From positions 347,932 to 411,931 of the forward strand of contig CAVZQN010000003.1 in the NCBI GenBank assembly GCA_963777505.1: a DNA stretch of 64,000 bases. Reading direction: 5' to 3'. The number at the start of each line of letters is the position of its first letter. Position 1 is the first letter of the stretch. A program made the translations under genes and the position numbers. The DNA is from an uncultured bacterium. Lineage in GTDB: Bacteria > Acidobacteriota > HRBIN11 > JAKEFK01. Below, in pieces: positions 2,876 to 48,226 of the stretch. Under the pieces are notes generated by a model. That model ran no database searches. It was given only the letters and a program-made list of their open reading frames with translations, and was not told where the DNA came from.

Positions 2876-3667
2876 TTATTCAGGTTTCATCGCGAAGAAT
2901 ACTTTTCTGTAGTTAGTCGCAAGTGGATGCGTGGAAAGAATTGGCGGAAACAAAACATTCTTCAGCACCATTGACTCTTCGAAACTCTTTTCATCAATGA
3001 CGGTTACTTGAAACCCTGCAGCTTGAACAATCTCCGAAAAATTAGCGCCGTAAATTCGCAAATGATCTGACTGGCCAAAGACTCGTTCGCGATCTGCAGG
3101 ATCAGTAATAGTCGAATCCTCATAGGTATCGGCTAGTCCATCTTTTTGAGGTACCGTAAGGATTGCATAACCTTGCGGACGCAAAATGCGGAATATTTCT
3201 TGTAAGGCCAGATGATCATTTGAAACGTGCTCCAATACATCGCACGCAACCACAGTGTCGTACTTTTCTTCCTTCAATTGCTTCATGTTTGTAATGTCCA
3301 ATTTCAGGTCAGCCGAATCGTCCACATTCGCGGTGACATAACTCGCTGAAGATTTTCTAATTAATTTTGCGAGTACTGTTTCCGGAGCAAAATGTAGCAC
3401 ATCTTTACCACGGATTAACTTTTCCATGGAAAGGCTTTGATTTTTTTGTAAAGCCGCTGCCAGCAGGCGATGCCTTATCTCTGAACGGCATTTCCAGCAA
3501 ATTGTGTATGGATGCCAGTTATCGCTATCAAAATGCCGGCCTGTCCATCCGCAGATGTTACATTCAACCTTTTTAGGAAAACTGATTTGAGCCGCAAACG
3601 CGGCGGACTTTAACTTTCGGATAACACGGTCGACTAAATTCAGACTCACCCTCGCTATTGAGTTCAA
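2876..3667 (-). CDS. Class I SAM-dependent methyltransferase with an N-terminal Cys4 zinc ribbon
   Basis: The CNICGW..CWKC ribbon is followed by a Methyltransf_11-like core (VLHFAPE.., DTVVACDVLEHV). Confidence 0.75.
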   Translation of the reverse strand: MNSIARVSLNLVDRVIRKLKSAAFAAQISFPKKVECNICGWTGRHFDSDNWHPYTICWKCRSEIRHRLLAAALQKNQSLSMEKLIRGKDVLHFAPETVLAKLIRKSSASYVTANVDDSADLKLDITNMKQLKEEKYDTVVACDVLEHVSNDHLALQEIFRILRPQGYAILTVPQKDGLADTYEDSTITDPADRERVFGQSDHLRIYGANFSEIVQAAGFQVTVIDEKSFEESMVLKNVLFPPILSTHPLATNYRKVFFAMKPE

Positions 3668-37124: not shown

Positions 37125-40100
37125 TTGAATCAGGATCAAGAAACAATCCTATTGACGCTTGCTTTGAAGAAAGGCCTTTTGAACGAAAAGGATGTTCAAA
37201 ATGCTGAGGGTCAGGAAAATGCTGGGCAACGTGTTGATTGGCTTGTTAAACAAGGACGAATCGATCGTTCTACAATCGACCTCTTGCTGAATTCTGGCGA
37301 ATTTAAGGCAGAAACAAAGCAGCCTTCAGCCGGCGCAATTTCAATCGAAAATTTTCGGGAACCGGGTGCGCCAGCTTTCCCTGTATCAAATTGGGATCGA
37401 TATGAATTCGAAAAATATCTGGGCGAAGGAGGTATGGGACGTGTCTTTAAAGCAGTCGATCTACGTCTGAAACGGAATGTCGCACTGAAGTTCATGATGA
37501 GCACTGCTGGTGGAAGAACGAAACGATTGATCCGCGAAGCACAAGCTCTTGCGCGAATTCATCACGATAATGTGTGCCAGGTTTATGAAATTGGTGAAGT
37601 TGAGGGCAACCTTTACATCGCCATGCAATATGTCGAAGGTGTGACTCTGGATCATGCAGATGTCGATTCATTTTCACTGCAAGAAAAAGTGCGGATCATG
37701 TTGGAGACAGCAGAAGGGTTACATGCAGCTCATCAAACCGGAATCATTCATCGCGACATCAAACCAGCAAACATCATGATTCGAAAAAGTGAAGAAGGCA
37801 CATGGCATCCTGTGTTGATGGATTTCGGATTAGCCCGCGAAACAGAAGATGAAGGAATTACGGGGACTGGTTTTATCGTAGGTACGCCTGCATACATGGC
37901 CCCCGAACAAGCAACACTTGAAAGCGAACAACTCGATCGTAGAACTGATATTTACAGTCTTGGCGCGACCATGTACAACCTTTTCACCGGGCAGGCTCCA
38001 TTTTCAGGGACAACTCCATTGGAGATCATCCGTAAAGTCAATGAAAAAGATCCTGAACCGCTTAGCAATTTAAATCCACAAATTCCTGCAGATCTTCAGC
38101 GCGTTGTAATGAAGTGTTTGGAGAAGCAAAGGGAACGCCGTTATCAATCTGCTAAAGAATTAGCAGAAGATCTGCAACGTTTTCTCCAGGGTGAGCCTGT
38201 TCTTGCACGCCCGATGCATTCGATTCACAGAAAATTTCGTCGAGTTGTACGGAATAAGATTGCAACCGCTGCGCTCATTGTGCTTGCGGCTGCTGTGTTG
38301 ATTTATCTTGTTGTCACAATCCGTAGCCGCGCGGAAATTCAAAATCGTTTGCGTCTCGCCAATGAATTTGTTCAAGAAGTACGATACGTCGACGAATTTA
38401 TGCGTCATGCACTGACAGCTCCATTGCATGACATTCGCCCGGAACGACAAAACGTCAGGGAAAGATTGAAGCAATTTGAAAAACGTGTCATTGAATCCGG
38501 TGCCGCGGGAGCCGGACCTGGTGCTTACGTAATGGGAAGAGGTCATCTTGCATTGAAAGAGCCGGAAACGGCACGGAAATGGTTAGAAAAAGCGATCGCT
38601 GCCAATTATAAAGTTCCTGAAGTTGACTACGCGCTTGGCTTAACACTTGGCGAATTGTTTCAAAAAGAATCAGAAGAAGCCGATCGAATTCCGAATAAGC
38701 AACTTCGAGAATCACGAAAAAAGGAATTGGAAAAAGAATTCAAGGAGCCTGCAATTGCGTTGCTGAGATCAACTCAAAAACTTCAAGTGGAATCTCCGGA
38801 ATATGCAGAAGCGTTGATCTTGTTTTACGACCGGCAATATTCAAAAGCTTTAACGAAACTTTCGGAAGCCCTTATTCGCGTGCCATGGTTATATGAAGCG
38901 CAAGTTTTGCAAGGCAAAATCTATTCCGCTCAAGCTCAGGATGCGCGGGATCGCGGATCGAACGATACTGCTATGGAACTTTTCTTAAAGGCAGATGAAT
39001 CCTATCGCAATGCGATGGGGCTCGGACGCAGTGATCCATCTCCATATTCTGCAGCCTGCGGATTGTGGGTGCAGGTGATGAACTTGAATTTGTATGGAGC
39101 CGGAGGCGAACTCGAACCTCATCTTCAAAAAGTAAGAAAGAATTGCGGGCTTGCATTAAAAGCAGATCCTGATCTTGAACTTGCGTACCTCGAACAATCA
39201 CATGCGTTGAAGTTGATCAGTGAGTCTCGAATCGGACGCGGCCTCGATCCATCGGAGTATCTCAAGGAATCTGAAGATCTTGCGCAGAAAGCTCTAAAGT
39301 TGTCACCGCGAAATGCAAGAGCTTACAATCAAATCGGAATGACTCTGACAATGCGCGGACTTTATGAATATGAAATTGGAAGCGATCCGACAGAATCTTT
39401 AAAAAAGGCGCGAAACTATTTGCAATCTTCGATTTCTGTGAACCCTACATATGTGTATGCGCACAATAATCTTGGCATCTGCAATCTATATTATGGGGAC
39501 TATCTTCTTTCGCGCAGCGAGGATCCATCACCGCCTATTAAAGATGCCATTCATGCGTTTGAGCAAGCAATTCAAATTAAGCCTGATTACAGCGGTGCTT
39601 TCAACAATATGGGCAATGCCTATTTATCGCTTGCTGAATGGGATTTCACGCATGGAAAGGATCCATTTCCGTATGCACAGAAAGCTGTCAGTAGTTATCA
39701 GAATGCTGTAAAAGCAAATCCTGCAGAATCATACACACTGCAGAACCTGGGTCTTGCTTACACTCAGCTTGCCAGTTATGAAATCGAAAAGAATATTGAT
39801 CCGACTCCGCACACGACACAAGCGATTGATGCATACGAGCAGGCAATTCAAATCAATCCAGAAAATACAGGCGGTTATGTAAATCTGGCGGTAACATTTT
39901 TGTATCGTGCTGAATATGACATGGAACATGGAAAGAATCCGGAAACAGATTTAAACTCAGCAATCAAGAGTTCACTTAAAGCAGTTGAGATCAATCCATC
40001 TGAATTCCGCTCACTGACAAACATCGGCAGCGCATATAAGAATCGCGCAGAATATTTTTTGATGACTGGGAAATATTCCAGTGAAGATTTCAGCCAGGCT

Positions 40101-40529
40101 GAAAAATATTATCGAAAAGCTCTTTCAGTACGGCAAGGACAAGGTTCAGCCCAGAGAAGATTAGGCCATCTTTATATTCTGCAAGCTCAGCATGAACTTG
40201 AATCCGGAGGCGATCCGCGCGGCGCGATCCGCAAAGCTGAAGAAGCTTTAAAGAAAGCTGCAGAAATTGAACCGGATGAATATGAAGTGCTGGTATCTAA
40301 AGCTCAAACTGAAGTGCTGAAAGCTCGTGATGCAATCATTCGAGGCAGCAATCCCAATAAATATTTTGCTCAAGCCGACAAATTCTTTGAAGAGGCGTTG
40401 AAAATAAATCCAGATTATCCCCAAATCTTGCTGGCAAGATCTCAACGCGATTTTTTTGAAGCGGAATGGAAACTGAAGGCGGGTAAGGATGCAACAGAGA
40501 ATGTTGTATCGCGGACTCACCACAACTGA
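37125..40529 (+). CDS. Ser/Thr protein kinase with one TM helix and a C-terminal TPR-like repeat region of about 750 aa
   Basis: GEGGMGRVF, VALK, HRDIKPANIM, DFGLAR, APE motifs, then a TM helix (IATAALIVLAAAVLIYLVV), then more than 12 repeats. Confidence 0.85.
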   Translation: MNQDQETILLTLALKKGLLNEKDVQNAEGQENAGQRVDWLVKQGRIDRSTIDLLLNSGEFKAETKQPSAGAISIENFREPGAPAFPVSNWDRYEFEKYLGEGGMGRVFKAVDLRLKRNVALKFMMSTAGGRTKRLIREAQALARIHHDNVCQVYEIGEVEGNLYIAMQYVEGVTLDHADVDSFSLQEKVRIMLETAEGLHAAHQTGIIHRDIKPANIMIRKSEEGTWHPVLMDFGLARETEDEGITGTGFIVGTPAYMAPEQATLESEQLDRRTDIYSLGATMYNLFTGQAPFSGTTPLEIIRKVNEKDPEPLSNLNPQIPADLQRVVMKCLEKQRERRYQSAKELAEDLQRFLQGEPVLARPMHSIHRKFRRVVRNKIATAALIVLAAAVLIYLVVTIRSRAEIQNRLRLANEFVQEVRYVDEFMRHALTAPLHDIRPERQNVRERLKQFEKRVIESGAAGAGPGAYVMGRGHLALKEPETARKWLEKAIAANYKVPEVDYALGLTLGELFQKESEEADRIPNKQLRESRKKELEKEFKEPAIALLRSTQKLQVESPEYAEALILFYDRQYSKALTKLSEALIRVPWLYEAQVLQGKIYSAQAQDARDRGSNDTAMELFLKADESYRNAMGLGRSDPSPYSAACGLWVQVMNLNLYGAGGELEPHLQKVRKNCGLALKADPDLELAYLEQSHALKLISESRIGRGLDPSEYLKESEDLAQKALKLSPRNARAYNQIGMTLTMRGLYEYEIGSDPTESLKKARNYLQSSISVNPTYVYAHNNLGICNLYYGDYLLSRSEDPSPPIKDAIHAFEQAIQIKPDYSGAFNNMGNAYLSLAEWDFTHGKDPFPYAQKAVSSYQNAVKANPAESYTLQNLGLAYTQLASYEIEKNIDPTPHTTQAIDAYEQAIQINPENTGGYVNLAVTFLYRAEYDMEHGKNPETDLNSAIKSSLKAVEINPSEFRSLTNIGSAYKNRAEYFLMTGKYSSEDFSQAEKYYRKALSVRQGQGSAQRRLGHLYILQAQHELESGGDPRGAIRKAEEALKKAAEIEPDEYEVLVSKAQTEVLKARDAIIRGSNPNKYFAQADKFFEEALKINPDYPQILLARSQRDFFEAEWKLKAGKDATENVVSRTHHN

Positions 40530-40740
40530 AAACGTGCTGAATAAGGTCGGTGGCTCAGCTCAGGCGTTTTTGATTAAAGGTAAACTCTTGCTGATCAAAG
40601 CCCAAGCTTCCCAAAATCCAAAAGAGCGTTCTGAATTCGCACAAAGTGCTGTTGAATCTTTAGAAAAAGCTGTATCCGTGAACTCGAATCTCAAAAACGA
40701 GTGTGGCCCGTTGATTGTGAAATCACAGGGCTTGCTTTGA
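40489..40740 (+). other. +1-frame ORF continuing the TPR-like repeat pattern of the kinase (putative frameshifted tail)
   Basis: The translation ..TENVLNKVGGSAQAFLIKGKLLLIKA..QNPKERSEFAQSAVESLEKAV matches the upstream repeat pattern G.(D/N)P......A..S...A...NP. Confidence 0.3.
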
Positions 40741-40744
40741 TGAA

Positions 40745-42811
40745 TTATGTTGTCGTGGGTGGCGGGTGGTTAAGCCAGTCTTTGTGGACAACGAATCTTC
40801 GAAATTCAGAAGACGTCATTAATCGAACTATGTAGCGGATCTTTTCCAGGGTGTAACTTACCCACATAATTCTATGAACGGATAAAGGATCACGCTGGTG
40901 TGAGTGTCGTATCCAGATATAGAACATTTTAGGGAATCCTGAAAGTAACTTTATCAAATCAACGAACAACTGCATTTTCCCCGGCATGTGTTGCGAATAC
41001 TTCGTATATGAATCCGAAGCGCCCCAATTGCGAGACCAGTGTTTGAGATAAGCAATACTCATTCTGCGTTTTGGAATATTGTGGTGAACTCTTGCATCGT
41101 GTATGAAGCCGACATGCTTTCCATTTTGCCAAAGCTTGCGAAGTAAACCGGATTCTCCATCGCCAAGCCATGTATCGCCAAAGGATTCAGGATTAAATCC
41201 CCCTAGTTCAAACAGCAATTTTTTTTCTATCGCCAGATTTACGCCAAAGAAAAAACAATCAGGAGTTAAACGAAAGGTATTAAACGGCTTCATCAAACCA
41301 AGTGCCGGAAAGAATTTGCCATCTGAAATCAGGTTTGATAACCATTCCTCAGGATTTTCCTCCCACAGTGGTTCTACCGGTCCTCCCGCTGCATTCATCA
41401 ATGGATGACTTTGGAAAGCATGCAGATAAGACTGAATCCAATTGGGATCGACACTCGCATCATCATCAGTGAATAAAACGATTTCGCCTTTTGCAGCCCT
41501 GGCGCCGGCATGTCTTGCGTTGTGCAATCCTAAATTCTTTTCGTATACATATCTGAGCTGCGGATTATTTGCAGACAGACTTGAAATGTATTCATGAGTC
41601 CGGTCAGTTGAGGCATTGTCCACCAAAATAATTTCATATGAATCAGGCGGGGCAGTCTGTTTAAAGTGCGATGGCAAAGTCGTTTTCAATCTCGGTTCGC
41701 CATTATGGGTGGAAATAATGACAGAAATTAATGGATGAGTTGAGTAAAATTTTTGCCTTTTTTTTAAAAATTCCTGAACATTGGAATCTGTCGGCTGATC
41801 GACCTCATTTACTTTCGCAATTTTCCAATTTCCCCGATGCTGAAATAGTCTCTTTCTCAAAAGACGTCTGAAAGGATAAACAAGGAATCGATAGACCACT
41901 CCAGAAAAGCTGATTGCGCTTATGAACGAGGATAGGAATCTCATTTCTACGCTACGCGAATATTTCGATGCCTGATCAAAAGCGCGGTGCGCTTCTTTCT
42001 TGAATCCTCGTTCCATTAATGTATCTGCGCTGAACAACATGAGACCAGCTAACGCATCGCTTCGATTTACGGAGTTGAGGTTGTTTTCGTTGAGGTGATT
42101 CCAAACAAGTTCTGCGGCGTAACGTTTTGATTCTTCAAGGCGTGGTGTTGCGCCTAAATTAAAACTTCTTGGAAGATCATGATCCCGCATAAATTGGAGG
42201 ATCAATGGAACAAAAACGTAATTGATCTCCTTACAGATTGCGCGAATATGAAATTCCCAATCATCGTAGCCAATTCCAAGATCCGTTTTCCAACCTCCTA
42301 AAGCTTCCAACGTTGAACGCCGCCAGAAGGCTGAGCCTGTATGCCAAACTGGATCGTCCCAAAGAAAACGATCTAGATGAAATTCCGGTAATGGTGAATT
42401 CCATAAAACTCCGAAGTCTCCTGGAATGTTTTTGAAATACTCATCCAGGCTATAGCACATGTCCACCGCCGGATCAGAATCCAGTACCTCCTTACAGACT
42501 TCGATTTTTTTGGGATGCAATAAGTCATCTGAATCCAGGAATTGAATGTATTTGCCTAGAGCTTCCTGCACACCTCGATTTCTAGCAATACAAACTCCAG
42601 CATGATCTTGCTTGATGAGGCGCGCACGGTCTTGAACATCCGGATGATTTATGATGGCTTCTATTTCAGTGAGTGTTTTCTGATCCGAACCGTCATCAAC
42701 GATGATTACTTCTATCGCGGAATAGGATTGCTTTACTGCTGAGAGTACCGCTTCTAATACAAATTCGGATCGTTGATAGGTTGGAATAATGATGGAAACG
42801 TCGGGCTTCAT
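40745..42811 (-). CDS. Family 2 glycosyltransferase with two GT2 domains
   Basis: Two separate GT-A signatures (VSIIIPTYQR..VIIVDDGSD and ISVIISTHNGE..IILVDNASTD). Confidence 0.8.
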   Translation of the reverse strand: MKPDVSIIIPTYQRSEFVLEAVLSAVKQSYSAIEVIIVDDGSDQKTLTEIEAIINHPDVQDRARLIKQDHAGVCIARNRGVQEALGKYIQFLDSDDLLHPKKIEVCKEVLDSDPAVDMCYSLDEYFKNIPGDFGVLWNSPLPEFHLDRFLWDDPVWHTGSAFWRRSTLEALGGWKTDLGIGYDDWEFHIRAICKEINYVFVPLILQFMRDHDLPRSFNLGATPRLEESKRYAAELVWNHLNENNLNSVNRSDALAGLMLFSADTLMERGFKKEAHRAFDQASKYSRSVEMRFLSSFISAISFSGVVYRFLVYPFRRLLRKRLFQHRGNWKIAKVNEVDQPTDSNVQEFLKKRQKFYSTHPLISVIISTHNGEPRLKTTLPSHFKQTAPPDSYEIILVDNASTDRTHEYISSLSANNPQLRYVYEKNLGLHNARHAGARAAKGEIVLFTDDDASVDPNWIQSYLHAFQSHPLMNAAGGPVEPLWEENPEEWLSNLISDGKFFPALGLMKPFNTFRLTPDCFFFGVNLAIEKKLLFELGGFNPESFGDTWLGDGESGLLRKLWQNGKHVGFIHDARVHHNIPKRRMSIAYLKHWSRNWGASDSYTKYSQHMPGKMQLFVDLIKLLSGFPKMFYIWIRHSHQRDPLSVHRIMWVSYTLEKIRYIVRLMTSSEFRRFVVHKDWLNHPPPTTT

Positions 42812-43719
42812 TCAGACTTAGCGGTGCCGGCCATGATTAACGAACGAAGAGGTTTTGTAATACGAAGCAAAAATCGGATTATTGCCACGATCGGCGTTGT
42901 CCATGGTTTGATGCGTGGCATCATATCAAGCTGCCGGATCATGACTTCTCGATTGAATGGACGCTTCAAACCTCCAGAAGTCAAAGTGTGTGTTGCATCT
43001 TTCAGTGAAATTTCCCGCGCAGCCGCGCCTGCTAATTTTATGTTGTGATCTGCTTCCGGACCATCCCACGTTTTGCCTGTTCCTTTTGGAATATGCTTGT
43101 AATCATGATTTTGATGCACGATTGAAATCGAAGACGTGGCATCAATGAGCGGATAGCCATCAGCTCTTGCAGAATATAAGAACCAGTTATCCCATGCAGG
43201 CCTTCCAATAATAAATGGCGGCATCCGCGTTCCGACTTTTTGAGTAAACACAAAGTAATCGATAGCCCAGGCTTCTTCAAGTATTCCAGATGCCTGAATC
43301 TCTTTTCTTAAACGATCCTGCCAGCCTTCTGAAAAATCAAGTGGTTCTACAATGTCAAGATTCCACCTTTGTCCGCAAAGCAAAAATTGTTTCTTCAGGT
43401 TCTGGGTTTGTTGAATCGACTTGACAAAATCAGCCATCAAAATGATATCGGAATTGATGTAACAGAGCAGCGGATCAGTAGACATTTTTCGCGCTTTTTG
43501 AAAAACATCTTGAATGATCGGAGTACCATATTCACTTGTTGCAACTTCCGGAACGTGTTCAAGATTCATTTCTGCTGCAATCTCTTTAGTCCCTTCATCA
43601 CTTCCAAAAAGGATCAATCGTGGCCGCGGCTGCAGTAATGTCCAGCTTCGAATAGCGTTCCGTTGGATGATGTTAATGTGTCCACGAAAAGCTTTTGGAA
43701 TTGCGAAGAGGGTTAACAT
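42808..43719 (-). CDS. Hypothetical protein, possibly a GT-A-fold glycosyltransferase
   Basis: No strong motif. It overlaps and is co-oriented with the GT2 gene and the sulfatase-like gene. Confidence 0.3.
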   Translation of the reverse strand: MLTLFAIPKAFRGHINIIQRNAIRSWTLLQPRPRLILFGSDEGTKEIAAEMNLEHVPEVATSEYGTPIIQDVFQKARKMSTDPLLCYINSDIILMADFVKSIQQTQNLKKQFLLCGQRWNLDIVEPLDFSEGWQDRLRKEIQASGILEEAWAIDYFVFTQKVGTRMPPFIIGRPAWDNWFLYSARADGYPLIDATSSISIVHQNHDYKHIPKGTGKTWDGPEADHNIKLAGAAAREISLKDATHTLTSGGLKRPFNREVMIRQLDMMPRIKPWTTPIVAIIRFLLRITKPLRSLIMAGTAKSE

Positions 43720-45822
43720 TTATGGTGTCTCAACTCTTGCAATCTCTGGCTCTGAAGATTTCAACAGCACATATTTGCCATTCGAATTTCGCAAAAAGAT
43801 TTGTACGTCATTGTGTCCTTTGACAAATGCTGATTCAGGTAACATCACGCGAAAACTATGAATTCCTTTTTTTCGCAAAGGGCGGGTTTGTCCTGTGGAT
43901 TGGAATGTTCCATTTAATGCGACAGCAATATTCCTTTTTTCTGCACCAAGCTCTGTGGATTCAATTGTGCCTGATAACAAAGCTGGAATGAAGGTGGATT
44001 CCGGATCAACATTTCCTAAGCGTTCCTTTTTATGAATCTGGATCCGAGCGTTGGAGGTTGAAATGTTTGTAGTCGCTGGTTGGCGAATCAGCCATTGATC
44101 CGGACCTGCATAAAACAAATTTGCAGAATTCTCTTCTCCGAACCAGATAATCTTCCGGTCAACTGATCGTTGAATTTGTTTCAAATCAGAGGAGAAAGTC
44201 CTTCGGACTTTTTCGCCTGAAAGAAATGAGCGTTTATTTTGTCTTGAAGGTTCCTTTTTCACCAAGGAAAATCCATCTACTTGCCATGGAATCGAAAAAT
44301 CCAAAACTTCAGCAATCGTTGGAAGTATATCGACCGTTTCCGTATTCCAGTCAACAATTTGTCCAGTCTTTTGATCCGGATATTTTATGAATAGAGGCAC
44401 CCATAACATTTCAGGATAATTTTTCTTCTGAACTTTGCGGAGCTCAGCTCCTTCTGTTAAGCCAAGTCCGTGATCTCCCACAAAAACGATCATGGATGAA
44501 TCATACAGGTTTTCTTCTTTTAACTTGTGAACTAATTCCCCGATTAATCCATCAAGAAATTGAACTTGAAGCAAAAGCCTTTGGTACGATTCCTTCACTA
44601 CAGTTTCACTTTCCCAGGATGTCGTTTGAACCAGTGCGATATTTTCGATTTCAAATGGATCATATGTTCGCCCCGAAGGAAGAAATTCCCAAATTCTGTG
44701 CGGCAACAGGATATGTAGATATCGAAGTATTGGTTTGTTTTCGGATTCAAGCGAACTCAGAAAATCGTCAAACGTTTTTCTTCTTCCGTTTCGATGATTG
44801 GGAGAGCGAATCTGATTTTGTCGTACTTTAAAATTACCCCAATTGTTTTGAATCGAAGGTAAATTGCGGCTCAATGCTGATGGAAGCACCACATGCCCGT
44901 AAATGATCGATAAATCAGAAATAATTTCAGCAATATTGCTCGAGCTCTTCGAATGCGGGTCTTTGAGCTTTTCCGGAAAGAGTTGAGTCGCGAACTCAGT
45001 TGCTTGCATTGAATACGAATTTTGTAACAACGTGAAAAGGGTATTCGGGTAATCCAGGGGAACCGGGACCGCTCCAGCATTCGCATAACGGCCTGTAAGC
45101 ATCGTTGGAATCGAATAAGTAGTTTGATCTGCAGAGGTAGTTGTATTTCGGTAGAAGGAAGCTTTTTGAGAAAGGCTGTGAAAGTTTGGAAAAAGATGAG
45201 AATCAATTTTCAAGTCTTTATTCAAAAGAGCAACAAGCGGGAATTCGTCAAATACGACAACTATAAGGGGAGCCGGATTTTTCGGAACAACTGTTGTGCT
45301 GATGGGCGTCTCAGAGCTATAGAGTTTTTTGATTTGAGGATTGAGCAGAAGCAATGTTGGGACTATCAGAATCGCCGGAGACAAAAATAGTAAGTATGAA
45401 GAAATTACTTTTTTGTACCCAATCGAAAATAGAATCAGACTGAAAAAAAAGATACAAACCATGACGAGGATTCCAATTGAAGGGCTTAATCCTCGCGCTA
45501 TTTGCATCAAAATTGAAGTGAGCAGAACAGCAAAAACAAAAGCACGATAGCCTTGTTGAAAATGTTTCCCAACTTTTCCTGCGAGTAGATATAAAACAAA
45601 AAGTAAAAGAGGCGCAAGAAAACTGAGACAGAAAACAAAAAGCAGAAGTGATGTATTCCTTATGTCATGGAAAACAAAAAACTCTGGCGCTTTTACAAGG
45701 GTTGAATACAAAGATTGCAGTGCAAGGTTGAACAGCGCAAAAAACGGTAAAGCTTCTTTTATTTTGTTCGGGTTCGTTGGATGTTCTCCCAATTTAATAT
45801 TGTTTCTTACCACGAAGTTCAC
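43720..45822 (-). CDS. Membrane-anchored sulfatase-family (LtaS/phosphoglycerol-transferase-like) enzyme
   Basis: About 5 N-terminal TM helices. Alkaline-phosphatase-superfamily motif MIVFVGDHGLGL. The annotated start is a GTG inside the hairpin array, so the true start is uncertain. Confidence 0.5.
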   Translation of the reverse strand: MNFVVRNNIKLGEHPTNPNKIKEALPFFALFNLALQSLYSTLVKAPEFFVFHDIRNTSLLLFVFCLSFLAPLLLFVLYLLAGKVGKHFQQGYRAFVFAVLLTSILMQIARGLSPSIGILVMVCIFFFSLILFSIGYKKVISSYLLFLSPAILIVPTLLLLNPQIKKLYSSETPISTTVVPKNPAPLIVVVFDEFPLVALLNKDLKIDSHLFPNFHSLSQKASFYRNTTTSADQTTYSIPTMLTGRYANAGAVPVPLDYPNTLFTLLQNSYSMQATEFATQLFPEKLKDPHSKSSSNIAEIISDLSIIYGHVVLPSALSRNLPSIQNNWGNFKVRQNQIRSPNHRNGRRKTFDDFLSSLESENKPILRYLHILLPHRIWEFLPSGRTYDPFEIENIALVQTTSWESETVVKESYQRLLLQVQFLDGLIGELVHKLKEENLYDSSMIVFVGDHGLGLTEGAELRKVQKKNYPEMLWVPLFIKYPDQKTGQIVDWNTETVDILPTIAEVLDFSIPWQVDGFSLVKKEPSRQNKRSFLSGEKVRRTFSSDLKQIQRSVDRKIIWFGEENSANLFYAGPDQWLIRQPATTNISTSNARIQIHKKERLGNVDPESTFIPALLSGTIESTELGAEKRNIAVALNGTFQSTGQTRPLRKKGIHSFRVMLPESAFVKGHNDVQIFLRNSNGKYVLLKSSEPEIARVETP

Positions 45823-45886
45823 GAAGTATCACGAAGTCGGTTTCTACAGCAATTGTATCTTCGTGCTTCTTCGTGATCTTCGTGGT
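45810..45886. promoter_or_regulatory. Symmetric heptamer array: 3x CACGAAG, a 17-nt spacer, then 3x CTTCGTG (candidate operator or terminator hairpin)
   Basis: CACGAAGTTCACGAAGTATCACGAAGTCGG..TCTTCGTGCTTCTTCGTGATCTTCGTGG. It lies between the LuxR regulator stop and the sulfatase-like gene start. Confidence 0.55.
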
Positions 45887-45892
45887 TTCATC

Positions 45893-46522
45893 TTATTCTT
45901 CCAGATGAACAAGGCCGCGTTGAAGAGCGGTAGTCGCTGCTTGAGTCCTGTCACTGACACCCAATTTTGTAAATATGATGTTGATGTAACTCTTGACTGT
46001 TCCCTCTGAAATATGAAGGGTTGCGGCAATTTCCTTATTGCTCATTCCTTTAACAATCAATTTTAGAACATCCATCTCGCGCGCAGTTAATTCAACTCCC
46101 GGAATTCTTGCTGCTAGTTTTTCTGCAACTTCAGGCGGAATCCTTCGGTGACCTGCATGCACGGCTCGAATTGCTTCGAGCAATTCTTTTCTAGGTATAT
46201 CTTTCAACAAATAGGCTCGTGCTCCGGCTTGAAGTACACGATAGATTTCCTCATCTGCATGGAATGTTGTCAGTACGATCACTTTTGCATTTGGAAAATC
46301 TTTGCGGATAGCAATGATGGCTTGCACTGCATCCATTTCGGGCATCCGTAAATCGAGGAGTGCAATGTCCGGACGATGCTTGCGATACGATTCTACTGCT
46401 TCGCGGCCATTCGAGGCTTCAGCCACAACAACCATATCCGGTTGAGTCTGAATAATTGCAGAAAGACCGTCGCGTACAACAGGATGGTCATCCGCGACGA
46501 GAATTCGAATTTGATTCTCCAT
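45893..46522 (-). CDS. NarL/FixJ-family response regulator (receiver plus LuxR-type HTH)
   Basis: ILVADDHPVVR..LLDLRMP receiver domain. LTAREMDVLKLIVKGMSNKEIAATLHISEGTVKSY HTH. Confidence 0.9.
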   Translation of the reverse strand: MENQIRILVADDHPVVRDGLSAIIQTQPDMVVVAEASNGREAVESYRKHRPDIALLDLRMPEMDAVQAIIAIRKDFPNAKVIVLTTFHADEEIYRVLQAGARAYLLKDIPRKELLEAIRAVHAGHRRIPPEVAEKLAARIPGVELTAREMDVLKLIVKGMSNKEIAATLHISEGTVKSYINIIFTKLGVSDRTQAATTALQRGLVHLEE

Positions 46523-46556
46523 CGGCCTACAACAGAGTCGACAATCTAGTTAAGAG

Positions 46557-46588
46557 CAATCAGCTCTCAGCACTCATTGCTCAGCACT
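46557..46588. repeat. 3x CTCAGCACT direct repeat upstream of the LuxR regulator
   Basis: CTCAGCACTcattgCTCAGCACTCAGCACT. On the minus strand this lies between the TMTC-like stop and the regulator start. Confidence 0.5.
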
Positions 46589-46606
46589 CAGCACTTTTAT
46601 TATAGT

Positions 46607-48226
46607 CTACTCGGACGATCCAAATTCTTCCGCTATATTTTGGTGTTTCCTGGCTTCTTCGAGCCGTCCAAGTTGTCGAAGCACATCAGCAAGGTTTCGA
46701 TGAGCGGGGGGTGAGTTGTAGTTGCATCGAATTGCTTCTTTAAATTCGTTTGCAGCCTTTTCAAGCTGTCCCGATCTCTGATAAAAAATTCCAAGATTGA
46801 AGTGTGCGGTGTAATAGTCAGGGTTTATCGCGAGTGCTTGCTGGTAAAGTTTTTCAACATCTTCAGAAATGTTTTTCGCCTGTTTTACTGTTGCCAGGTG
46901 AGCGTACAAAGCTGCGGCAATCGTGTTGTTCTTGTTAGGCTGAGAGAGTGCACTTTTGAACTCTGTTTCTGCTTGATCCAGGTCACCTGCTTGAAGATGA
47001 GCAACGCCAAGCCTGAAGAGAACTTTGCTGTCGTTCGGATTCGTCTCGGCGGCAGCGCTCCATAAGCTAAGATCATTTTGCCAATATAGTTGCCGGACAA
47101 TCAGCACCGGTGAATAAATAAGCAGCACCAGGATTGCAAGGGTCCAAATTTGTTTTGAGTTTGGTGCCTCACCATGATTTCTATTTCGTAAATATCGTAT
47201 AAGACAACCGGCCATCAACAAGCAAAAACTAACCGATGGAAAGTACAAGAATCGCTCGTCAAGTGTAGTTTCGATTTGAATGAAACCGAGCACCGGAATC
47301 AAAGTGATAAGCCATATTAAGGACCAGGACCGGATCTTTTTGTCCTGAACGAACCACAACCCGGCTCCGAACAGAATTGTCGCAAGTACAGTCAGCCAGA
47401 CTGGAAGAATAGATGGTGGCGGTTCCAAATAGAGTGCGATCGGAGGCAAGATCATCAATCGTAAGTACGAAGGGATCAAGCTCAATCCAGATATGAACTT
47501 TTCAAAACTGAAAGAGGTGGGTCCAACGGTACCCAACGCGAAGTGGCGTATCAAAACGATGGATGCAAGTACGATTGCAAAAGGAATCATCCAAAGGAAA
47601 GCGGAGCGCCAGCTTTTTTCGCGTTCTTTCCAGAAAATTAATGCTGGTGTTGTTACGCTGATTTCTTTTGCAAGCAAGGCAAGGAAATATAACGGAGGCG
47701 CCAATACTTTGCGGACCGTAAAGGCAAGTAAACAAGAGAGTGCGAATAGAGTAGCAATTGCGTCTACACGTCCGGAAACGAATGTTACTGAACTGACATG
47801 TGATGGGTGAACAGCAAAAATCGCCGCGGTTAAGAGTGCGAGGGCGATGTTGTCGAAAAGTTTGAGAACGAGAAAGTAGAGAACGATCACAACTGTCACA
47901 TGAATCATAAGGCTTGTAAGGTGATGACCGAAAGCGGTCCGTTCCCAGATTTGCCAATCAGTCCAATGTGTTAGCAAAGAAATTGGCCGATAGTATCCAA
48001 GTGAATATTGTGGATTTCCCTGGCCGTAATAATCTTCGGTGAAGCCTTCCAGGATTCCTTTTGCTGATCGCAAATGAAAGTTGTTCAGGATCAGGTAGTG
48101 ATCATCAAAAACAAAGTCTGCGAAAAGGGAAGGAAGATAAATGAAGAAAGTACCGAAGATGAGAAATAAGACGTATTTTGAATGACCCTGTGACGGATGC
48201 ATGATCCAGGGTACAGGATACATCAA
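46607..48226 (-). CDS. TMTC-like membrane protein (PMT_2/DUF1736-type N-terminal polytopic domain plus C-terminal TPR repeats)
   Basis: The FDDHYLILNN..YYRP motif region is followed by about 10 TM helices, then TPR repeats (AHFNLGIFYQRSGQLEKA). Confidence 0.5.
   Translation of the reverse strand: MMYPVPWIMHPSQGHSKYVLFLIFGTFFIYLPSLFADFVFDDHYLILNNFHLRSAKGILEGFTEDYYGQGNPQYSLGYYRPISLLTHWTDWQIWERTAFGHHLTSLMIHVTVVIVLYFLVLKLFDNIALALLTAAIFAVHPSHVSSVTFVSGRVDAIATLFALSCLLAFTVRKVLAPPLYFLALLAKEISVTTPALIFWKEREKSWRSAFLWMIPFAIVLASIVLIRHFALGTVGPTSFSFEKFISGLSLIPSYLRLMILPPIALYLEPPPSILPVWLTVLATILFGAGLWFVQDKKIRSWSLIWLITLIPVLGFIQIETTLDERFLYFPSVSFCLLMAGCLIRYLRNRNHGEAPNSKQIWTLAILVLLIYSPVLIVRQLYWQNDLSLWSAAAETNPNDSKVLFRLGVAHLQAGDLDQAETEFKSALSQPNKNNTIAAALYAHLATVKQAKNISEDVEKLYQQALAINPDYYTAHFNLGIFYQRSGQLEKAANEFKEAIRCNYNSPPAHRNLADVLRQLGRLEEARKHQNIAEEFGSSE

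Follow-up and report, generated by a model that had tools for sequence, protein, structure and literature searches.

A palindromic array of three CACGAAG and three CTTCGTG heptamers lies between a NarL/LuxR-type response regulator gene and a sulfatase/LtaS-like gene on contig CAVZQN010000003.1 of an uncultured acidobacterium, of which we analysed a stretch of 64 kb (hereafter the window). The array is probably a copy, devoid of an open reading frame (ORF), of a widespread family of selfish or neutral palindromic elements, and was inserted between these two genes. The arms of this family are built of three heptamers at 9-10-bp spacing, here ACCACGAAG-nn-CACGAAG-nnn-CACGAAG. In full-length members the space between the arms is filled by a 123-aa ORF for a GxxExxY protein (PD-(D/E)XK fold, PF13366/TIGR04256), and in most copies, that of the window included, the interior is short or non-coding. 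Presence and absence at orthologous loci show, to judge from the sequences compared, an insertion in the ancestor of the species, into a spacer of about 20 nt between the regulator stop codon and the TTG start of the sulfatase gene. Genome surveys show that the array belongs to a repeat family distributed across phyla, that the same arms bracket GxxExxY ORFs, and that the family has no association with the regulator.

Structure of the array

The array is 78 nt long and reads ttAC-CACGAAG-tt-CACGAAG-tat-CACGAAG-(22 nt)-CTTCGTG-ctt-CTTCGTG-at-CTTCGTG-GTtt on the plus strand. Its heptamers start at 45811, 45820 and 45830 (CACGAAG) and at 45859, 45869 and 45878 (CTTCGTG), with start-to-start spacings of 9/10 in the first arm and 10/9 in the second. 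A repeat search recovers a single inverted repeat of two 28-nt arms, which are 89% complementary and 22 nt apart. These results confirm the heptamer positions, the spacings of 9 and 10 and the long imperfect palindrome given in a preliminary description of this DNA, and correct its gap of 17 nt between the arms to 22 nt. Pairing within the arms involves only the heptamers and the outer AC/GT, and two of the five spacer positions are complementary. As RNA, the minus strand folds at -36.6 kcal/mol (z = -6.6; matched by none of 200 shuffles) into three helices of 9, 8 and 7 bp with internal loops of 1 and 3 nt between them; as DNA, the array reaches -25.7 kcal/mol (z = -8.8).

The heptamer CACGAAG occurs 12 times in the window (7.45 +/- 2.83 in shuffles), and the six copies outside the array are all single and at chance level. 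Neither paired or clustered CACGAAG nor a second triple 6-mer array of 8-11-nt period, of which shuffles give 0-1, was found elsewhere in the 64 kb.

Presence and absence at orthologous loci

The array is present on two ENA contigs of the same species, L133 and L134 (98-99% nt identity), and the loop of L134 has a single G-to-T exchange. Three more distant loci, all of which keep the TPR-regulator-sulfatase order, lack it. In L135, an Acidobacteriota metagenome-assembled genome (MAG) whose regulator is 91% identical at the amino acid and 79% at the nucleotide level, the regulator stop is followed by 18 nt and TTG. The contig of P0002 (76% aa identity) leaves a gap of 1 nt between the end of the regulator at 3234 and the start of the sulfatase at 3236, and the contig of P0003 (61%) shows an overlap of 4 nt between these genes. 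Because the same-species contigs carry the array and the three more distant orthologous loci do not, we interpret it as a lineage-specific insertion of 78 nt. Without these 78 nt the window spacer measures 22 nt (16 nt at 45793-45808 and 6 nt at 45887-45892), which by comparison with the 18 nt of L135 is an ancestral size. The insertion separated two genes that overlap or almost touch in their relatives, and it put a stem-loop of -37 kcal/mol into the operon.

Distribution across bacteria

Species-representative genomes and IMG/VR viral contigs were searched for the pattern CACGAAG-N2-3-CACGAAG-N2-3-CACGAAG, which with its 21 fixed bases should by our own arithmetic match by chance about once in 596 Gb. 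The pattern matched at least 120 stretches in the genomes and no fewer than 120 in the viral contigs. The carriers span more than 15 phyla and include Acidobacteriota, Desulfobacterota, Planctomycetota, Verrucomicrobiota, Kiritimatiellota, Lentisphaerota, Chloroflexota (including the complete genome of Herpetosiphon aurantiacus), heliobacteria, Alpha-, Beta- and Gammaproteobacteria, Nitrospirota, Gemmatimonadota, Methylomirabilota, Binatia, Bacteroidota, Thermotogota and several candidate phyla.

The arrays are mostly intergenic. An inverted partner arm, defined as at least two heptamers with at most one mismatch within 350 nt, accompanies 77 of the 133 elements in the genome loci listed. In nearly all of these pairs the CTTCGTG arm follows the CACGAAG arm (L073 is reversed), and their loops measure 5-258 nt with a mode of 17-25 nt, for which the 22 nt of the window are typical. 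Among the gene pairs that flank elements of the genome loci, 61 are co-directional, 13 convergent and 7 divergent. Clustering of the genes next to the 120 listed arrays yielded no recurrent family, only generic two-component systems, ABC ATPases and TPR proteins. One contig often holds several copies (for example six in 13.8 kb of L182, five in 11.7 kb of L189, three in 8 kb of L094). Contig ends are enriched in arrays, 5 of 20 whole contigs having one no more than 150 nt from an end (1.2 expected, p = 0.006), as would be expected of assembly-breaking repeats. No presence/absence polymorphism of arrays was found among near-identical viral contigs.

Triple arrays of other heptamers (CACAGAG, CACGGAG, CACAAAG, CGCGAAG, CACGAAT, ACAGGAT, GCACTTT) are likewise abundant in the fetched loci, whose 1.88 Mb hold 1222 triple arrays on both strands, against about 0.1 per 64 kb in shuffles.

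Some loci display more elaborate arrangements. The intergenic regions of L189 (700-9585) and L146 (2060-2370; IMGVR_UViG_3300038701_003367) are chains of modules, each consisting of a triple 9-mer array, a GC-rich hairpin and a conserved CCTTGCTCCTGGTGGG tail. The array types follow each other as CACGAAG, CACAGAG/CGCAGAG and ACAGGAT/CGGGAT, and all modules share one orientation, with no inverted pairs. Whole elements are tandemly repeated seven times in L066 (5227-5833, a Bacteroidales MAG; units of about 85 nt) and in L092 (6474-7800, a Vicinamibacterales MAG; units of about 155 nt). In L066 the CACGAAG arms pair with CTTTGTG, which is G-U-compatible, and the strands fold at -117 vs -71 kcal/mol. 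Unbroken runs of 8-9 CACGAAG with a 9- or 10-nt period and no inverted partner in L031 (7193-7271), L080 (4608-4677) and L071 (9-85) look like minisatellite expansions, some of which may sit inside ORFs. Purine-rich triple arrays of different heptamers (CACGAAG, CGCGAAC, CACAGAG/CACGGAG) stand head-to-tail within 150 nt in L083 (4-160) and L119 (3395-3480), where complementary arms are not nearby.

Constraint on arms and interiors

Among 19 elements whose six heptamers are all perfect, 30 of the 38 arms have AC as their outer flank, and the spacers are purine-rich in the CACGAAG sense (A 50%, G 30%). Their spacer complementarity, at 35 of 80 positions, is not above the prediction from composition. 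The window arms match this family design, as seen in the 19 perfect and the 77 paired elements, with about 28 nt, three identical heptamers, a 9-10-nt period, the purine-rich arm first and an outer AC...GT. Four elements of one genome share the arm design and have unrelated interiors of 19, 93, 129 and 172 nt. Copies in Acidobacteriota (L047, L049, L063, L076, L088, L037 and others) possess the 9+10 spacing of the window and a T-rich second spacer of 3 nt, together with unrelated loops; on these shared traits, they and the window array are classed as a lineage subfamily.

Judged by these comparisons, the conserved part of the elements is the heptamers, rather than pairing as such or the interior. 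Because the heptamers are invariant while spacers and interiors vary, their constancy points to sequence-specific recognition. They may be the recognition sites of a sequence-specific factor, for which the element-encoded GxxExxY protein, acting in trans, would be the obvious candidate; that this protein binds the heptamers and mobilises the element is speculative.

GxxExxY genes between the arms

The full-length form is seen in L056 (Desulfobacteraceae), where ttcACCACGAAGagCACGAAGggaCACGAAG is followed by 1 nt, a 123-aa ORF, 3 nt and CTTCGTGctCTTCGTGctCTTCGTGGTGaa. The product is a GxxExxY protein (PF13366 PDDEXK_3, E = 1.7e-43; TIGR04256, E = 7e-45). In L112 (Planctomycetaceae) the ATG of a PF13366 ORF follows the arm at 0 nt. 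L016, a Thermotogae MAG, has one arm, a decayed 5' fragment of the GxxExxY ORF and, after about 125 nt, the other arm, a structure that reads as an internal-deletion derivative of the full-length element. Between arms, the ORF was observed in at least 10 lineages; a tblastn search of the fetched loci for divergent GxxExxY genes returned none beyond L017, L056 and L112, and no GxxExxY relatives were found among viral contigs.

Homologues of the 123-aa ORF number at least 8000 at E <= 1e-10. The best 120 of them show 80-95% identity, and nearly every one has a length of exactly 123 aa; their named sources span different phyla, and most lie on contigs shorter than 2 kb. At 20 places in the DNA around P0196 (L256-L265) and P0217 (L266-L275), arms stand directly before the start codon and 3 nt after the stop codon. 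Over-called N-termini translate the arm, as in PRRARRTRR-M (P0186), PRRARRARR-M (P0236), HHEEHEGTRR-M (P0165, P0170), TTKGTKQHEG (P0139), TTKDTKSTK-M (P0287) and TTKNTK-M (P0264). This reading was checked on P0225, whose extension LPRRTRRTLRRQKM agrees with the DNA of L256.

At 50% identity the GxxExxY family has 27,890 representatives (E <= 0.001). A dipeptide repeat of 3-residue period just before the domain occurs in 16 of 48 N-terminally extended representatives, compared to none of 48 control windows. Inferred from the protein strings and not from DNA, TTEGTEDTE, TTEDTEVHGG and HHGDTEARS are consistent with CACGGAG, NHRGTEITE with CACAGAG (and a C-terminal LCLCASVV with CTCTGTG), GAEDAEG with CGCAGAG and HQAHQGHQA with CACCAGG. 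Other GxxExxY subfamilies appear to carry arms of other heptamers. The window loop itself, ATACAATT-GCTGTAG-aaaccga on the minus strand, weakly resembles the first 8 nt (ATGGAATT) and the last 6-7 nt (TCTGTGA) of the P0196 ORF. These short strings hint at a fusion of the 5' and 3' ends of the ORF, which would fit an internal deletion.

The best-scoring GxxExxY representatives, P0256-P0260 and other proteins of 265-295 aa, have two tandem domains with a linker of about 30-40 aa; they seem to be true fusions, as the linker is unlike translated arms. The P0196 element is flanked by genes for a dCTP deaminase and for YfhO. In some metagenome contigs (L259 and L264, as compared to L256 and L257) an additional CTTCGTGGT arm fragment and a further stretch of about 170 nt stand before it, which suggests that insertions occurred next to or inside one another at a single site.

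A selfish element and its alternatives

We regard the array as selfish or neutral, probably non-autonomous, and most likely not a site for the adjacent regulator. For its host, the insertion may have introduced a strong intercistronic stem-loop into the operon mRNA and broken the tight juxtaposition of stop and start codons. By analogy with repetitive extragenic palindromic (REP) sequences and rRNA intervening sequences (IVS), the stem-loop could be an RNase III or exonuclease-barrier site that shifts the ratio of regulator to sulfatase expression.

Several observations weigh against this interpretation. Copies from a single genome have unrelated interiors, in which they differ from classic copy-and-paste MITEs (miniature inverted-repeat transposable elements). 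Neither a target-site duplication nor any other transposition signature was found; the flanks of the window insertion, GATGAA and AAGAAA, share AA only, and the empty site of L135 is too diverged for alignment. A GxxExxY gene was not found in the 64 kb, and only one array copy is visible there. A GGAATT-type remnant of the ORF 5' end occurs at only 9 of 305 arms, compared to 1 of 294 control windows. The hairpins could descend from gene-carrying elements, or the gene could later have invaded hairpin loops. In a comparison of sense and antisense hairpin stability among 37 elements between co-directional genes, the split was 17 vs 20 (p = 0.89), so that this test yields no positive evidence of selection at the RNA level, and RNase III processing of the array is argued from analogy.

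The invariance of the heptamers against drifting spacers and loops would also be expected of a binding array for a chromosome-wide DNA-binding protein, in which six helically phased heptamers on duplex DNA affect topology or transcription. The 9-10-bp phasing fits one helix face, the distance between the arms is variable (5-258 bp) and RNA stability is without strand bias; moreover, such a protein has been proposed for the class 2 sites of Geobacter metallireducens, 21 pairs of (TCTCCGTS[Y])x3 (PMC2700814). We consider this explanation unlikely, as a single heptamer would need a factor of conserved specificity across more than 15 phyla, and as the tight bracketing of one small ORF, together with the sporadic presence at orthologous loci, looks more like a mobile unit than a regulon. 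Furthermore, we know of no candidate for such a protein. Binding by a chromosome-wide protein is compatible with a selfish element if the binder is the GxxExxY product.

Selection by the host for an RNA element appears rather improbable. Here the hairpin would tune the regulator-to-sulfatase ratio as a stabiliser, a processing site, an attenuator or a REP-like structure, or would be a plain intrinsic terminator. The transcribed strand does form a very stable hairpin 6 nt past a stop codon, the array is retained in three same-species genomes, and REPs of E. coli near a stop codon reportedly affect the upstream gene, as Liang, Rudd and Deutscher are said to have described in 2015. The array is, however, not conserved beyond the species, and its retention at 98-99% identity is uninformative; there is no family-wide sense-strand bias and no Rfam family. 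The sole match in an Rfam 15 search of 44000-48000 (E <= 1) was the microRNA model mir-982, at 25.9 bits vs a threshold of 70 bits (E = 0.16). The large terminator hairpin offered as an alternative in the preliminary description does not withstand the U-tract test, although the hairpin is real: downstream of the stem the minus strand reads GUAAGAAACAAUAUU, without a U-tract, and the scan gave no terminator-like call at the array.

An operator of the adjacent NarL/LuxR-type regulator, controlling the sulfatase, hypothetical and glycosyltransferase genes, was the function originally favoured, and we now hold it to be very improbable. The array does begin 6 nt past the TAA stop of this regulator gene, directly downstream of it as described, and the gene encodes a GerE-type helix-turn-helix protein. 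NarL-family proteins bind heptamers, and the array resembles their operators in having seven-base repeats in both orientations beside a NarL-family gene. In L084 a CACGAAG array also stands 27-39 nt after the gene of a 45%-identical regulator, for which about one adjacent case expected by chance, by our own estimate, accounts. Absence from orthologous loci had been named beforehand as an argument against the operator, and the array is missing from three regulator-sulfatase loci (P0002, P0003 and L135), one of which has a 91%-identical regulator. More than 15 phyla possess the identical array in contexts unrelated to this one, and only 6 of the 120 listed loci have a related NarL-like regulator within their 8 kb. 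Its layout is wrong as well: it differs from the NarL heptamer consensus TACYYMT and contains no head-to-head 7-2-7 pair, neighbouring heptamers being direct repeats with 2-3-bp spacers and inverted copies lying at least 22 bp apart. The position is intercistronic and outside a promoter, and a scan of 45500-46700 for the sigma-70 consensus only detected nothing promoter-like. Elsewhere in the window, paired or clustered CACGAAG is missing. The regulator gene is a neighbour of the insertion and not a demonstrated partner.

Other candidates were rejected because too little supports them: an integron attC site (the outer AAC...GTT is found in a subset only, the window has TAC, and ordinary operons contain arrays), split parS or DnaA-box flanks (limited to some of the subfamilies), telomerase-like healing of double-strand breaks (the arms border intact ORFs as well as extended palindromic flanks) and a coding repeat (a 9/10-nt period does not keep the reading frame).

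Comparison with known systems

Among characterised systems, the closest analogue is the 23S rRNA intervening sequence. That of Coxiella burnetii in helix 45 has a stem of 28-bp terminal inverted repeats with an S23p ORF in the loop and, directly upstream of this ORF, three tandem GACAGAT heptamers (2-3 copies among strains); RNase III cleavage falls within the stem, at the first of these repeats, and the IVS is regarded as selfish and horizontally acquired (PMC4990558). Both systems share an inverted-repeat stem of about 28 bp with tandem heptamers, which the window array likewise possesses, as well as tandem heptamers before a small loop ORF of unknown function, a sporadic distribution, ORF decay and a presumed selfish status. 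They differ in that the IVS lies inside an rRNA helix and is excised by RNase III, whereas the window array, which is not a member of the IVS, is located between protein-coding genes in an mRNA spacer. In addition, the GACAGAT heptamers are contiguous and those of the window type 2-3 nt apart, and the IVS ORF encodes the four-helix-bundle protein S23p, in contrast to the PD-(D/E)XK GxxExxY protein of full-length relatives and the ORF-less window copy.

The class 2 sites of Geobacter metallireducens are 21 pairs of three tandem TCTCCGTS[Y] each, the reverse complement of RCACGGAGA, on opposite strands and at variable distance, which the authors guessed to be bound by a global regulator yet to be identified or by IHF/HU (Aklujkar et al. 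2009, PMC2700814). They share the architecture and the multicopy, intergenic occurrence of the array family, and their core differs by a single base (CACGGAG vs CACGAAG). The class 2 sites were, however, described in one genome, without any connection to GxxExxY genes or occurrence across phyla, and were read as putative IHF/HU-type sites.

REPs and their composites (bacterial interspersed mosaic elements, BIMEs, and REPINs) resemble the array family as short extragenic palindromic repeats with many copies per genome, which form mRNA hairpins, break assemblies and often lie between co-directional or convergent genes (for the array family 61 and 13, against 7 divergent). A REP unit is, by contrast, an imperfect palindrome of 20-40 nt that bears a GTAG or CGTC tag and belongs to a species-specific family, whereas the array arm is a non-palindromic triple direct repeat without GTAG or CGTC at its ends, and its heptamer recurs across phyla. 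Moreover, the array-associated ORF is of the PD-(D/E)XK type and not an HUH RAYT transposase as in REPs. MITEs, which are non-autonomous offshoots of DNA transposons, in turn share terminal inverted repeats, a size of 50-500 bp, an excess over the gene-carrying form and, as in L016, derivation by internal deletion. The array family differs from them by the lack of observed target-site duplications, the unrelated interiors of same-genome copies and the lack of a recognisable transposase in the gene-carrying form.

PF13366 is described as a family of unknown function with 'multiple transfers' (PMC3424549). In a literature search that did not extend to subscription journals we found no paper on CACGAAG arrays or on GxxExxY genes linked to such arms, passing mentions only of GxxExxY and PF13366, with function unknown, and no follow-up of the Geobacter class 2 sites; searches for the array sequences themselves led to unrelated work only, for the most part eukaryotic or clinical. 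It seems that the kind of array is known (palindromic selfish elements of the IVS, REP or MITE type) and that its link to the large orphan GxxExxY family is undescribed.

Implications

The tempting regulatory model for this locus is removed. Beyond the locus, three loose observations are tied together, namely the paired triple repeats of Geobacter (2009), the heptamer stems of IVS and the orphan GxxExxY family, which jointly suggest one testable cross-phylum hairpin element. We tentatively propose, with rather less than even confidence, that GxxExxY (PDDEXK_3) proteins could be the nucleases of an undescribed class of hairpin-ended selfish elements, in which each subfamily would recognise its own heptamer code (CACGAAG, CACGGAG, CACAGAG, CGCAGAG, CACCAGG and others), present three times per arm. 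The ORF-less palindromes in spacers of Acidobacteriota, Planctomycetota, Verrucomicrobiota, Desulfobacterota, Chloroflexota and others would then be non-autonomous derivatives, and rRNA intervening sequences the same kind of element inside rRNA. Annotation would likewise gain from recognition of the arrays, as they cause contig breaks and over-called N-termini with strings such as HEGHEG, TKDTK and RRARR.

Neighbouring genes and the sulfatase start

On the minus strand, the genes follow in the order TPR protein, regulator, array, sulfatase/LtaS-like protein, a 303-aa protein without Pfam match, and a double GT2 glycosyltransferase (positions in Table 1).

Table 1. Positions of the array parts and adjacent genes within the 64-kb window
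Feature	Position	Strand	Remarks
TPR protein gene	46607-48226	-	
NarL/LuxR-type response regulator gene (Response_reg + GerE)	45893-46522	-	stop TAA 45895-45893
Arm 2: CTTCGTG-ctt-CTTCGTG-at-CTTCGTG + GT	45859-45886		5' arm on - strand; from sequence and repeat search
Loop, 22 nt	45837-45858		- strand reads ATACAATTGCTGTAGAAACCGA
Arm 1: AC + CACGAAG-tt-CACGAAG-tat-CACGAAG	45809-45836		3' arm on transcribed - strand; from sequence and repeat search
Spacer, 16 nt	45793-45808		hairpin base to TTG start; - strand reads AAGAAACAATATTAAA
Sulfatase/LtaS-like gene, longest ORF	43720-45822	-	
Sulfatase/LtaS-like gene, revised (most likely)	43720-45792	-	TTG start 45792-45790

The longest ORF of the sulfatase gene opens with a GTG at 45822-45820, which falls inside the array. 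In an alignment with 12 sulfatase orthologues, homology extends from residue 21 (IKEALPFF) onward, and 10 of the 12 start at the column of window residue 11, which is the TTG located 16 nt beyond the array. The sulfatase of L135 likewise starts at TTG, in the context TTAAATTG. Because the orthologue starts align at this TTG and L135 uses the same codon, the true start is most likely 45792, 30 nt inside the GTG, which would shorten the protein from 700 to 690 aa. The GTG start is an artefact of the longest-ORF reading, and the suspicion voiced earlier that the true start lies further in is supported.

The operon of sulfatase, 302-303-aa protein and double GT2, together with a convergent downstream Ser/Thr kinase-TPR gene, is kept in L123 and L124 at 53-55% identity (compared with 37125-45822 of the window). 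Because neither has a response regulator upstream of the sulfatase, the linkage of regulator and sulfatase would be restricted to a closer clade. The sulfatase / 302-aa / GT2 operon is likewise preserved, with no regulator upstream, on the contigs of P0005, P0010 and P0012, and a metagenome scan for closer orthologues found only relatives of at most 57% identity, none with the regulator upstream. An exact look-up of the window regulator and of P0001 found neither on record.

Gene calls differ slightly between the same-species contigs. In L134 (638-2276, corresponding to 46607-48226 of the window) the TPR gene is called as two ORFs of 240 and 289 aa instead of one (539/584 aa), which suggests a frameshift or an assembly error, and in both L133 and L134 the regulator is called 4 aa longer (213 aa).

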